DNA from: a virus
Length of the DNA stretch: 64,000 bases
IMG/VR virus record: IMGVR_UViG_3300039191_000223
Coordinates: 1-64,000 of that record
Strand: one strand, 5' to 3'
Shown here: positions 43,629 through 61,741 of the stretch, one piece after another
Layout of the letters: each line of letters opens with the position of its first letter
How positions within the stretch are numbered: position 1 is the stretch's first letter
Program-made: the position numbers and the translations under genes
Notes under the pieces: model-generated
The model's input: only the letters and a program-made list of their open reading frames with translations
Told to the model about the DNA's origin: nothing
The model's database searches: none

Positions 43629-43947
43629 TTACATTTTTATTTTTTTAGGCTTTGAGATTTGAAAAGTGCTAGGCCCTGAACAAGTTTCGTATTGTTCTTC
43701 TGTTCCACCAAACATATTTATTGCTTCCACAATAAAATAACCATCATCCGTTTTTGCCCATCATTAACCAAAAATCTTCGCCTTCTCTAAACTTAACAGC
43801 ATAATCAGTCTGGACTGATTCTGCCATTGCGTAATCGTAGATAGTACCATCATTCACAAGCCCTTGTAGGATCATGAGTCCTTTTTCTACTTCCTCAAAT
43901 ATAATTGCGTCTCTCACTGCGTCAAATTTTTCAGGTATTATTTTCAT
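43629..43947 (-). pseudogene. hypothetical gene frameshifted at A5 run (43751-43755)
   Basis: Removing one A extends MGK into TDDGYFIVEAINMFGG...KIKM*, filling the gap. Confidence 0.5.
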
Positions 43948-44621
43948 AATAGATTCATTCCACCTTTCATTATTTTTGTTGCTTTCGCAGTCTTACCTGT
44001 TTGATGGTCAATTACTTGATCATCCTGAAAGCGATATGTTCTTATTTTGTCACCACGCATACCAGAGCCCCGTTGTTCCCTAGTTATTTGTGATGTTTGT
44101 TTAGACTGGTCATTATATAACATTTCGCTAATCTGTGTCAATAGACTTTGCTTGGCCTCAGCATAATTGTTTTTACGGTTCCTACCTTGACGAGCTTCAC
44201 AAAGTCCAGTGGGCGTGTGGGTGAGGCGACAAGAGTTCTGCTTTTTATTTCTATGTTGCCCACCTTTACCGGTTCCTGAAAACCACTCAACGTGGAAGTC
44301 TTTATCATCGAGGGATAGATAAGCATCGTTTACTGATAACTGATTGGGGTCAACAACGGATACTGTAACCGTAGAAGTGTGGACTCTACCACGTTTCTCA
44401 GTTGGAGGGATTCGTTGTATTCTGTGCCCACCGGCTTCATTATCAAGGCCACGTAGGTCTTTACCAGTGATGTCGAGTTGTGTAAAGCTTGGATGAACTT
44501 TAACGTCACACTTTCAACCGTAGGTAGTTGATAGGCGGGAGTATGCTTCAGCTAGATCGTTGACAAATAGTTTGGAATCGTTACCACCCTCTGCCGGGTG
44601 AATTTCTAGAATGCGTTTCAT
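43944..44621 (-). CDS. RF1-type peptide chain release factor with in-frame TGA at codon 36
   Basis: LEIHPAEGG, EAGGHRIQRIPPTE, GRVHTS, GKGGQHRNK, HTPTG, KIRTY all in one frame; TGA at 44514-44516. Confidence 0.92.
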
Positions 44622-44945
44622 TTTACTTTCCTCTAGTATTAATGTTATTTATCCCATTGCCACGGTTTGCCGGGTTTACATAAAATAATATAATCACATA
44701 CCTTAGTTATTTCGTTGAAGTAATAGTATGCAGGGTCGTATACCCAGCCCCCACGACTTACTGTTATGTGTGGTACCTCTTTGCTACTCCATGTGCCGTG
44801 TTCATATTTCCCGAGCCACCATTTAAGACTGCTTCGAGGGCATTCCAACAATACCAAACTATAAAACACAATATAAAGATTAGAAAATCCATGGTGTTCT
44901 CCGATTAAAACGGATGCCTAGTCTACAAATTTGTATACATAGTGT

Positions 44946-45576: not shown

Positions 45577-46764
45577 CTACTGGTACTCAGTAGCATCGCC
45601 CTTACGAGTCAAGTATGCAGCACTGACACTCTTGAGAATCACACGACCAATCTCATTGTCTCGACGCTCAATCGCGGTTCTGATCACAATACCCTCACGG
45701 ATATGCGCCTCTTTTCCTGACAGCGTTTCCTTACCATCGGTGTATTCCTGCATCACCTCTACCGAAAACGGACCACTGTAAAGAACAGGCATGTACTCAA
45801 CCGCATAGCCACCGTATTTAATCTCGTCACCAATGCCATCGTCCGATTCATGGAGTCTATTCTCAAACCATTCTAGGGCATCAAGTACTTCATCGGAGTT
45901 AAGGTAACGGCCCGTCTCACCATTGCCATTAGGATTGCCCACGTAAATGTCAAACACCCTAAACACCGGTTCCGTAGAGCCATAGTGCAAATCCTGCACA
46001 CCTTTACCGAAAATCTCACCAAGAACAAAGATGCTATCGGTATCCAGTAGGTGAGTAAGCTCATCGACAAGAGCTTGACCAACGTCATTGAACATCTTCA
46101 CATACAGGTTGGAAGCATTCATCGGGTTAAGCTTAAATGCTAGACCCTGCTTGCCAAGACCTTTCGAGTTCACAATGTAAGTCTGGTCATAGATGCCCAT
46201 GGACACAAAGGTCCCGTGCGCCTTCTCCGTGAAGATAACTTCCTCCCCATCCTGAATCACATCCGGGTTGTTTTTCCAATTCTCAATATCGAATCGGAGA
46301 GTCTTGCCACTAGCATTCCAAACCTGCCCTGCCATATGCACCGGAATCGGCGGCTCGTACTTTACGATGCGAAGGTAGTGAGTTACAACAGCACCTTCAG
46401 GCACATAAAGATCAGTAGGACCCTCATCAGGATCGATGAAATGCATGTCATACCATTCGGAGCCATCAGTCGTCTCGCACTTCTTCAAGGGGTAAATCAG
46501 ACCTTGAGACAGCACACCGCGAAGCTTGATAGCCTTCACACGGTCACTGTTTTTACCAGCAAGCCTACCTTCCAGCCCAAGCTCTTTAACAAGCCACTGG
46601 GGCAACACAGCCTGTTCAGGAATATAAACGGCAAGGTCGCCCGTCTGGAACTGTCCCTTACGCACGATAGAACGATATCCACCAACGACAGCGAGTTCGA
46701 GAGCATCAGCATTCGGATGCTCTTCGATGGTTAGTCTAACTACTTTGACGTTAAATTCTGACAT
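45577..46764 (-). CDS. RNA ligase, DRB0094-like family with N-terminal OB domain
   Basis: HPNADAL, LRGVLSQG, TEKAHG, GEIFG, REGIV, LKSVS..YL. Confidence 0.88.
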   Translation of the reverse strand: MSEFNVKVVRLTIEEHPNADALELAVVGGYRSIVRKGQFQTGDLAVYIPEQAVLPQWLVKELGLEGRLAGKNSDRVKAIKLRGVLSQGLIYPLKKCETTDGSEWYDMHFIDPDEGPTDLYVPEGAVVTHYLRIVKYEPPIPVHMAGQVWNASGKTLRFDIENWKNNPDVIQDGEEVIFTEKAHGTFVSMGIYDQTYIVNSKGLGKQGLAFKLNPMNASNLYVKMFNDVGQALVDELTHLLDTDSIFVLGEIFGKGVQDLHYGSTEPVFRVFDIYVGNPNGNGETGRYLNSDEVLDALEWFENRLHESDDGIGDEIKYGGYAVEYMPVLYSGPFSVEVMQEYTDGKETLSGKEAHIREGIVIRTAIERRDNEIGRVILKSVSAAYLTRKGDATEYQ

Positions 46765-47477: not shown

Positions 47478-48143
47478 TCAATTTCGTTGAAGGCGCAACA
47501 TATTTCGCTCGCCCCCAGACCACATCCAATGCTGGTCAGTCTGTACATGGCCTTTACGCACAAACTTAGCTATACTTTGTTGGAAGTCCTTAAGTTGAAA
47601 GCTTCCAGCTGGACGAATAACGTAGCCCTCAACAGTCTTTTGCATATCATCAGTATACAAAGCCTTGATCGCTTCCTCATCATACACGCCACGATAAAGA
47701 ACCGGCACATGATCCATATGATACTGCTCACCTGTTTTGATATGCCACTGTGTATTATTGCAGCGCTCAACGGTATCATCCCACGACAATGCAGTGTCAC
47801 CTTCCCACCACGAAAAGGCAAGAAAATAAGATGGTAATTGCGTGTAGATAATAGAATGCACAGCGAACATATTTTCACCACAGATTCGTTCATCATCTTT
47901 CAGTTTGAAGGAGACAGAACCCCACAGGTTTTTGACCCATTCACGAGACCAGTGGTATCCACTATTGACAGATCGAGCATGGATATGATCCCGATACATG
48001 GTGGTGCACTCCCCATCCATTTTCTCGGTAACAACAACTTCCATGCCCGCAAAGGCTGTAGTCGTATCGAGAATGATATCGTCTTCATCTGCACCCGGAG
48101 ACCAAGGCAAATGTGGGGTGCGGGGATATTTAACATACGTCAT
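47478..48143 (-). CDS. RNA ligase family protein
   Basis: KYPRTPHLPWS, TEKMDGE, CGEN, EGYV, AKFVR. Confidence 0.88.
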   Translation of the reverse strand: MTYVKYPRTPHLPWSPGADEDDIILDTTTAFAGMEVVVTEKMDGECTTMYRDHIHARSVNSGYHWSREWVKNLWGSVSFKLKDDERICGENMFAVHSIIYTQLPSYFLAFSWWEGDTALSWDDTVERCNNTQWHIKTGEQYHMDHVPVLYRGVYDEEAIKALYTDDMQKTVEGYVIRPAGSFQLKDFQQSIAKFVRKGHVQTDQHWMWSGGERNMLRLQRN

Positions 48144-61045: not shown

Positions 61046-61741
61046 TCAGCGACTGTTTGTCAACCCCTGATACCAAGAAGCAGATAGGGCCTCTGGAAAA
61101 TTAATAAGGTCTCGTTTAGCGCACCCCCTAATAGTAGATTCTCTAACCCAACACACTGCCTGTGGTGGTTCTGCCACGTATAGGGGGGGGAGTCCCGATT
61201 TGCAATCCATCATGAGATACCGATCTACTTCCATCTTAACCCCATCGTTTATGGCATCATCGACAAGCCATTTAGCGGTCACTGGGCTAAGACCATATGC
61301 GTGCGTGCCAATAGCTCTTGGAATTTCAATCAAGTGGTCTACTTTATTTACAATCGGAGTATACGAATCGCGGTCAGGCACGCGATGCCCGAATGTCACA
61401 ACAGCCATATCAGGAATGTTAACGGTGTTGAGTTTACCTACTATCAATGCATCATGCTCCAAAATAACTCATGGTGCATCCAGTTCAACAATTCGTTTCC
61501 AACATTTAATCGAAGAGGCGTGGCACCCCGCATAACCCACATTACTATAGCTTGGATTAATTTTTGTCACCCCAACGCTCGCGAATGTTTGTATGGGTGT
61601 TTCAAAATACTGCTTATCTACCGCATCGATATATTCATATGACAGGCCATGCTCTTCACATGAGCTAGCACACTGCGCAGCATAGTCAACTGACAGTTTA
61701 TTCTTTGTCATTCTTATGATTAATGCTTTCTGAATTCTCAC
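61046..61741 (-). CDS. GT25-like glycosyltransferase interrupted by in-frame TGA (61469-61471)
   Basis: GCHASS..CW...DAP*VILEHDA...GTHAY in one frame. Confidence 0.7.

Follow-up and report, generated by a model that had tools for sequence, protein, structure and literature searches.

Recoding in release factor genes

Among class-I release factors (RFs), UGA is read by RF2 only and RF1 does not read it; in E. coli, UGA followed by A is a leaky context, and the A1 protein of phage Q-beta is produced by UGA readthrough with Trp-tRNA. Autoregulatory recoding of an RF gene is a textbook case, known just for RF2 and by way of a +1 frameshift, which takes place in prfB at CUU UGA C (codon 26), downstream of a Shine-Dalgarno (SD)-like element (Atkins et al. 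2016, PMC5009743; PMC12421855). An early UGA in the same frame has not been found in RF2 genes, a UAG/RF1 counterpart is unknown, and the RF of an amoebal giant virus is cited as the sole case of readthrough (Atkins et al. 2016, PMC5009743); programmed recoding in prfA was not found in a 2025 survey (PMC12421855). The class-I homologue PrfH (RF-H) acts together with RtcB2 in a module for ribosome rescue and repair (PMC1586002; 10.1101/2025.01.09.632186), and RF1 deprived of its domain 1 is reported to remain capable of peptide release in vitro and to be functional in vivo (PMC1586002). Stop-codon-recoded phages, finally, encode RF1 or RF2 together with suppressor tRNAs (Borges et al. preprint, 10.1101/2021.08.26.457843). 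The gene considered here lies on the minus strand of a 64,000-nucleotide stretch of viral DNA (positions 1 to 64,000 of IMG/VR record IMGVR_UViG_3300039191_000223, hereafter the window), belongs to a jumbo phage, and would encode a 225-amino-acid (aa) conceptual protein of the RF1 type at 43947-44621 if an in-frame TGA is read through.

This TGA, at codon 36, is a conserved and selected feature at a Trp position. The reading favored here, with a probability of about 0.55, is that the gene specifies a domain-1-less RF1-type factor whose synthesis is gated by programmed in-frame UGA readthrough at this codon. The window is part of a 102.7-kb record (G000), estimated as ~30% complete, which encodes a T4-type major head protein and 40 tRNA genes, and whose source is a jumbo phage related to T4.

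A short RF1-type gene interrupted by a stop codon

The reading frame opens at an ATG (44621-44619, minus strand) as MKRILEIHPAEGG...TYG-TGA-KCD..., with 35 codons before the TGA at codon 36 (44516-44514), then 189 codons up to a TGA-AAA-TAA end at 43946-43938. Codons 37-161 contain no in-frame ATG, GTG or TTG, which leaves the catalytic GGQ part without a start codon that would serve it alone. A preliminary description, drawn from the sequence alone, had given this frame with its ATG at 44621, its GAGG, a single TGA at codon 36, PxT and GGQ, and all of these are found on re-reading. The features of the gene are as follows.

44630..44633, minus strand: SD-like GAGG, 8 nt 5' of the ATG, read from the sequence
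44517..44621, minus strand: codons 1-35, the beginning of RF domain 2 with its AEGGxD...LF helix (Pfam PCRF residues 4-87)
44514..44516, minus strand: the gate, codon 36, an in-frame TGA flanked as GGT TGA AAG (sequence and conservation across relatives)
43947..44513, minus strand: codons 37-225, remaining domain 2/4 and GGQ domain 3 (Pfam PCRF and RF-1, NCBIfam prfA, AlphaFold2 model)
44400..44408, minus strand: PPT tripeptide, codons 72-74, an RF1-type PxT "anticodon" motif (sequence and alignment)
44283..44285, minus strand: Trp113, an ordinary TGG, as in 81/81 loci scored, so that TGG is in use within the gene
44256..44264, minus strand: GGQ peptidyl-tRNA hydrolysis motif, codons 120-122, invariant in alignment A1
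43938..43946, minus strand: TGA AAA TAA gene end, with TGA at a conserved C-terminal Trp, overlapping the start of the next open reading frame (ORF) as ATGA

The readthrough product matches Pfam PCRF (C-terminal part, 6.6e-20) and RF-1 (1.2e-17), as well as NCBIfam prfA (1.9e-49, 168.6 bits), the latter over model positions 107-332 only and below the equivalog cut-off of 400 bits. NCBIfam prfB scores lower than prfA (102.1 bits), and prfH (TIGR03072) is matched in the GGQ domain only, at 36 bits (4e-9) for a cut-off of 166.65. Comparison with PDB chains gives 100-125 bits for RF1 versus 52-71 bits for RF2, and an AlphaFold2 model of the product (pLDDT 84.8) has ribosome-bound RF1 chains as its top Foldseek matches (TM 0.77, E 1e-16), PrfH coming at rank 50. 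The order RF1, RF2, PrfH is thus obtained both by sequence and by fold. The PxT motif (P72-P73-T74, within QRIPPTEKRGRVHTS) and the flanking Q...GRVHTS residues are of the RF1 type, G120-G121-Q122 is invariant in the alignment, and codon 36 aligns with a Trp of both Thermotoga maritima and Acinetobacter RF1.

The prfA match begins at model position 107, domain 1 being missing from the product, as the preliminary description had stated. A separate domain-1 gene was sought beside the RF gene, and the neighboring small ORFs match no family. RF-domain genes occur as one per genome, with no extra copies. Taken together, sequence and fold identify the predicted product as a domain-1-less RF1-type class-I release factor, which, given its motifs, would be expected to release peptides at UAA and UAG. 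The lack of domain 1 and a score of 168.6 bits against the 400 required indicate a distinct short paralogue family, rather than an orthologue of the cellular prfA.

Conservation of the stop codon

Close homologues spanning codon 36 were available for 80 viral loci, 10 loci from genome collections and 10 metagenome loci, the loci scored covering part of 484 IMG/VR matches and of roughly 4,700 protein matches. The aligned codon is TGA in 80/80 viral loci (49-57% identity), in the 10 genome-collection loci, which include isolates of Thalassospira xianhensis and Jiella, and in the 10 metagenome loci, which include the closest relatives available (64-69% identity). Tabulating this codon in homologues had been set beforehand as the test able to refute the proposal, and it returned TGA in 100/100 close homologues covering the site. 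Trp113 and Trp226 are TGG in these loci. In the phage collection, no close relative above 40% identity was found among isolated phages.

Selection on both sides of the stop, which the preliminary description had also singled out, was estimated from 75 distinct sequences (viral relatives plus the window). Synonymous sites are saturated (pS ~0.78), and purifying selection acts upstream as well as downstream of the TGA, with an omega of ~0.09 over codons 2-35 and of ~0.13 over codons 37-225. An invariant TGA amid saturated synonymous sites represents conservation far beyond chance. As the related genes checked all retain the stop or else carry a prfB-style frameshift site in its place, the codon is to be considered as a control gate and not as the mark of a broken gene.

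A gate conserved across different devices

How is this position occupied in more distant members of the family? Distant short RFs from huge standard-code phages have UGA at codons 36 and 50, 44 and 50, 42, or 50, and the UGA stands at codon 46 in a proteobacterial group to which Variovorax and a Cupriavidus plasmid belong. Another 40 loci, mostly from Myxococcota but also from Achromobacter anxifer and several metagenome-assembled genomes (MAGs), present a prfB-style +1 site, either CTT TGA C (28 loci) or CTT TAG C (12 loci). The stop of this site is codon 37 in 33/40 and is followed by C in 35/40, and an SD-like GGAGG, GGGAG or GGGGG is found 5' of it in 32/40. The window gene has no such +1 cassette, its GGT TGA AAG leaving the frame unchanged. 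Whatever the type of gate, PPT is kept in nearly all members, and GGQ is kept too.

A quickly built maximum-likelihood tree groups the UGA-36 genes in a single clade (86 rows, SH-aLRT 100) with a sole exception, L140, located on a Hahella MAG contig (3001-3664). In this gene, codon 36 is TGG and codons 41-42 hold CTT TAG C, an amber version of the prfB shift site with no obvious SD; one gate has here been swapped for another. In the other clade, the cassette switches back and forth between UGA and UAG, so that even sister sequences can differ, as in the pairs L176/L182 and L194/L214. In the evolution of these genes, the UGA gate and prfB-type +1 cassettes have thus been exchangeable at one codon, and what the family conserves is the gate itself, and not the device that implements it.

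Several gated genes are carried by cultured bacteria, which could act as experimental systems: Thalassospira xianhensis MCCC 1A02616 (L136) and Jiella sp. LLJ827 (L138) have UGA at codon 36, Achromobacter anxifer LMG 26857 (L165) has CTT TGA C, and Cupriavidus plasmid pTMH.W2_2 (L150) has UGA at codon 46. A Pfam scan of the flanks of the Thalassospira gene revealed no clear phage genes.

Stop context and RNA structure

The codon preceding the gate UGA is Gly in 70/71 distinct sequences, and the following base is A in 57 (80%), G in 9, C in 5 and T in none. At the true TGA terminators of three of these genomes, the next base is A in 32% and T in 31% of cases, a comparison confounded by the kinship of the sequences and by selection on the amino acid that follows. 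A U at this position (+4U) lowers readthrough at termination in E. coli and S. cerevisiae (PMC5289835), and the missing +4U at the gate fits with a weak termination context.

The stem TAAAGTT/AGCTTTA, pointed out in the preliminary description just 3' of the UGA, does form in the minimum-free-energy fold of the window sequence, although it turns out to be no more stable than chance: the fold reaches z = -0.97 when dinucleotide shuffles are the reference, and z = +0.12 when synonymous shuffles are. RNAalifold returned 0 consensus pairs 3' of the UGA in 75 relatives, and a candidate CGCC/GGCG stem was discarded, as its covariation is not significant (60/500 shuffles reach the observed score). 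The relatives as a group show a modest excess of structure against synonymous shuffles (mean z -1.27, compared with -0.35 for a control segment). Some relative lineages may therefore carry a hairpin, which the window gene does not (z +0.12), and structure does not form part of its gate.

How the gate may operate

Under the readthrough reading, ribosomes would initiate at the ATG at 44621 and meet GGU-UGA-A after 35 codons, where host RF2 would compete with a near-cognate Trp-tRNA(CCA), originating from the host or from a phage tRNA-Trp gene. Whenever RF2 wins, a useless 35-aa peptide would be released; whenever the tRNA wins, Trp, the residue of canonical RF1 at this position, would be inserted and the 225-aa factor completed. 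The output of the factor would thus be low by default, and would rise when UGA termination is slow or Trp-tRNA abundant. As only RF2 reads UGA, the yield of full-length protein must depend on how RF2 fares against the tRNA that decodes the codon, and it is plausible that this yield tracks RF2 activity. In Bacillus subtilis, UGA readthrough rises from 6% to 19-54% in prfB mutants (PMC7918605), which indicates that UGA readthrough responds to the activity of RF2.

Trp-tRNA is the simplest candidate, because canonical RF1 has Trp at this position and L140, which is devoid of the TGA, has TGG there; near-cognate Trp-tRNA(CCA), in competition with host RF2, is thus likely to be what decodes the gate. 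Several points nevertheless weigh against readthrough as described. The readthrough itself, the insertion of Trp and the response to RF2 are all deduced from sequence, and no stimulatory RNA structure is supported in the window, either by fold z-scores or by the alignment. A phage tRNA-Trp of the Hirsh type is not supported, the good copy at G000 65164-65238 having the wild-type U11:G24 and not A24, and since G000 is only ~30% complete, a UCA tRNA elsewhere in the genome may be conceivable. Finally, the gate toggles between UGA and UAG with PPT unchanged, and the selected property may therefore be a general sensitivity to termination, self-feedback or attenuation, rather than RF2 sensing in itself.

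The preliminary description had proposed that the gate senses RF2. This follows from the specificity for UGA and fits the CTT TGA C relatives, but in 12 relatives, whose PPT is unchanged, the site is CTT TAG C, so that across the family the gate is not RF2-specific. It had also set the gene apart from the +1 frameshift circuit of RF2, which holds for the window gene, where readthrough would be in frame, but not for the family, where the two devices replace each other. What was selected may be RF2 sensing, self-feedback, as the toggling with constant PPT might hint, or simple attenuation.

The alternative that survives best, rather unlikely all the same, is that the UGA is a constitutive attenuator keeping a potentially harmful extra RF at a few percent of mRNA capacity, any response to RF2 being incidental and not selected. 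Such an attenuator would be in line with the absence of a conserved stimulatory structure in the family, the harm done to cells by excess release factors (PMC12421855), and the fact that UGA and UAG gates are equally serviceable. A weak ribosome-binding site or promoter would, however, achieve the same result without wasted translation; moreover, the gate is kept in >100 diverged genes and replaced by a different gate in L140, and the full prfB-type cassettes that relatives carry at the same codon respond to RF activity by a known mechanism.

These cassettes, which resemble that of prfB itself, also raise the question of a prfB-like negative feedback, in which the short factor would recognize its own gate codon (UGA here, UAG elsewhere) and shut off its own synthesis. 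For the UAG-gated members, this would follow directly from an RF1-type specificity, and close relatives such as L176/L182 and L194/L214 toggle between UGA and UAG with the same PPT. For the window gene it is improbable, as PxT and Q...GRVHTS are of the RF1 type and RF1 does not read UGA, and as the motif is the same whatever the gate codon.

Decoding tRNAs

A further possibility concerns the decoder, for which the tRNA genes of the window record and of four complete relatives were compared.

G000 (window record), 102.7 kb, ~30% complete: 40 tRNA genes; Trp(CCA) 2, UCA 0, CUA 1
G001, 364 kb, complete: 46 tRNA genes; Trp(CCA) 1, UCA 0, CUA 1
G002, 342 kb, complete: 40 tRNA genes; Trp(CCA) 1, UCA 2, CUA 0
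G003, 424 kb, complete: 56 tRNA genes; Trp(CCA) 2, UCA 0, CUA 1
G005, 362 kb, complete: 45 tRNA genes; Trp(CCA) 1, UCA 0, CUA 1

A dedicated phage suppressor tRNA(UCA), possibly encoded in the missing 70% of the genome, could decode the UGA and turn the gate into a tRNA-timed switch. The two UCA tRNAs of G002 (77 nt each), the incompleteness of the window record, and the 40-56 tRNAs of these phages, some of them atypical, leave room for this quite improbable scheme. However, G001, G003 and G005 are gated and yet have no UCA tRNA according to ARAGORN, none of the 40 tRNAs of the G000 fragment is UCA, and an efficient opal suppressor would be costly where TGA ends 32-52% of ORFs. With no UCA tRNA in 3/4 gated complete relatives, a dedicated opal suppressor is not the general decoder.

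Two other tRNA genes located beyond the window deserve mention. The second tRNA-Trp(CCA) of G000 (65356-65427) is 72 nt long; its acceptor stem is weak, its D stem has 3 bp, and it may be a degenerate or atypical tRNA. An amber-suppressor CUA tRNA is found at 84842-84917, and also in G001, G003 and G005; with CUA tRNAs in 4/5 gated genomes and two UCA tRNAs in G002, a suppressor-type tRNA accompanies the short RF in each genome examined. No genes with in-frame TAG were found in G000.

Genetic code and private stop codons

This genome uses TGA as a normal stop: TGA ends 62/170 non-overlapping ORFs in G000 (~36%), and coding density is 0.888 under code 11 versus 0.887 under code 4. Codes 4 and 15 were both ruled out for the genome, as neither improves coding density. 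The complete relatives G001, G002, G003 and G005 also use the standard code, TGA ending 32-52% of ORFs across the five genomes. In a codon-usage scan of the whole record, the RF gene was the single place where a TGA joins two long coding-like stretches, the other TGA match (1126) being followed by just 38 codons, and the RF gene alone in the 102.7-kb record has a conserved in-frame stop.

Standard gene callers truncate or miss the RF gene, or choose code 4 on short contigs. The seemingly full-length database proteins with W36, which come from short contigs, were most likely called under code 4, and on longer contigs the calls start late, truncated at an internal Met.

The terminal TGA (43946-43944) is of a different nature. 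It aligns with a conserved Trp (Trp226), the relatives ending in ...LLW(R/K), and this codon is TGG in 80/80 viral loci and in every metagenome locus reaching the position. Since relatives have TGG, the terminal TGA is private to the window genome, a TGG-to-TGA change outside the conserved design, which either shortens the protein by its two final residues or, if read through, adds W-K before the stop. A conserved design in which TGA-AAA-TAA acts as a second UGA with a backup stop is not supported on these grounds.

Another in-frame TGA of the window lies at codon 91 of a glycosyltransferase family 25 (GT25)-like gene (61046-61741, minus strand), whose Pfam match spans the TGA; the aligned codon is TGT (Cys) in 4 related viral loci, and this TGA is private as well. 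The two private TGAs could reflect recent nonsense mutation, assembly error, or a tolerance of leaky UGA in the phage-host pair. That the RF gene itself is a pseudogene, a sequencing error or the product of a genome-wide TGA=Trp code, as the GT25-like gene with its private TGA and the code-4-like full-length proteins called on short contigs might suggest, is refuted by the conservation and code analyses, with the same TGA in 100 independent assemblies at omega ~0.1, no gain in density under code 4, 62/170 ORFs ending in TGA, and no second long-flanked TGA junction in the codon-usage scan.

Promoter motifs and gene neighborhood

Three further features lie at or around the gene, one of them inside its coding region.

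44646..44651, minus strand: TAAATA motif within GATAAATA, 25-30 nt 5' of the ATG, a possible T4-type late promoter (weak inference)
44112-44141, minus strand: perfect sigma-70 consensus (TTGACA, 18 nt, TATAAT; 12/12) inside the RF coding region
43744..43947, minus strand: 67-aa ORF downstream of the RF gene, overlapping the RF stop with its start and matching no family

The promoter reading of TAAATA is weak because the motif is not enriched across the window (67 found versus 57 expected). The internal sigma-70 consensus sits near codon ~161 and is directed toward the downstream small ORFs.

The window RF gene sits among tRNA genes, with two RNA ligase genes within 3.5 kb; these (45577-46764 and 47478-48143, both on the minus strand), together with a guanylate-kinase-like gene, are found just upstream of it. 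In relatives, the commonest neighbors (22-42 loci; for example L005, 4421-5984) are DSP-phosphatase-like, AAA_33 kinase and metallophosphoesterase genes, and no RtcB was found among the neighbor genes scanned. This neighborhood suggests a translation-maintenance or RNA-repair module that keeps translation going in infection, placement alone being no proof of function.

Comparison with known recoded release factors

A search of the literature returned no description of a UGA readthrough gate in a short RF1-type gene. The Mimivirus/Megavirus class-I RF gene (Jeudy et al. 2012, PMC3521657) shares with the window gene its origin in a large virus and its recoded internal stops, readthrough included, but its product is of the eukaryotic/archaeal eRF1 type and its virus infects amoebae (PMC3521657). 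Like Q-beta A1, the window gene combines an in-frame UGA, a near-cognate tRNA-Trp and a bacterial host, with A preferred after the stop (80% here); in Q-beta, however, readthrough extends an already complete protein into a second product, whereas here the stop comes early and only the readthrough product could work.

PrfH resembles the window product in being a class-I RF homologue that lacks domain 1, keeps GGQ and has RNA-repair genes nearby. The window product is nonetheless much closer to RF1, both in sequence and in the model, and keeps PxT; no report of a recoding gate in PrfH genes was found in the PrfH work examined (PMC1586002). In the phages described by Borges et al., a stop codon is reassigned over many late genes, with the genes for the code change written in standard code, in contrast to the window genome, which follows the standard code and has one gated gene.

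A broader proposal, somewhat short of even odds and advanced tentatively, is that the short RF1-type factors of jumbo phages and bacteria constitute a distinct RF class, whose synthesis would be tied to failed termination at a stop read by a single factor (UGA or UAG), through Trp readthrough or a +1 shift. In the window phage, the gate would report on host RF2 or on Trp-tRNA supply, and would turn on a factor for termination or rescue that works independently of RF3 and whose gene adjoins tRNA and RNA-repair genes. If true, this would be the first natural readthrough-controlled RF gene of the bacterial type, an idea that predates the sequencing of prfB and for which no case was known (Atkins et al. 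2016, PMC5009743).

The closest comparison remains that with prfB. Both are class-I RF genes with an early in-frame stop, passage of which would be set by the slowness of stop reading, and 40 members of the short-RF family bear a prfB-type cassette, mostly with the stop at codon 37, adjoining the position of the window UGA. Unlike prfB, the window gene stays in frame and needs an amino acid at the stop, without slippery CUU or SD; its gate lies in domain 2 of a factor lacking domain 1; and its RF1-type (PPT) product is not expected to read UGA, which would make the gate a cross-check on RF2 instead of a self-feedback. The short-RF family would thereby supply both missing forms of RF recoding: a Trp codon position where UGA is predicted to be read through, and a prfB-type cassette in amber form (CTT TAG C). 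Both occur in an RF1-type factor and exchange at one codon position, and the family so offers a natural series for the choice that ribosomes make among termination, near-cognate decoding and slippage.

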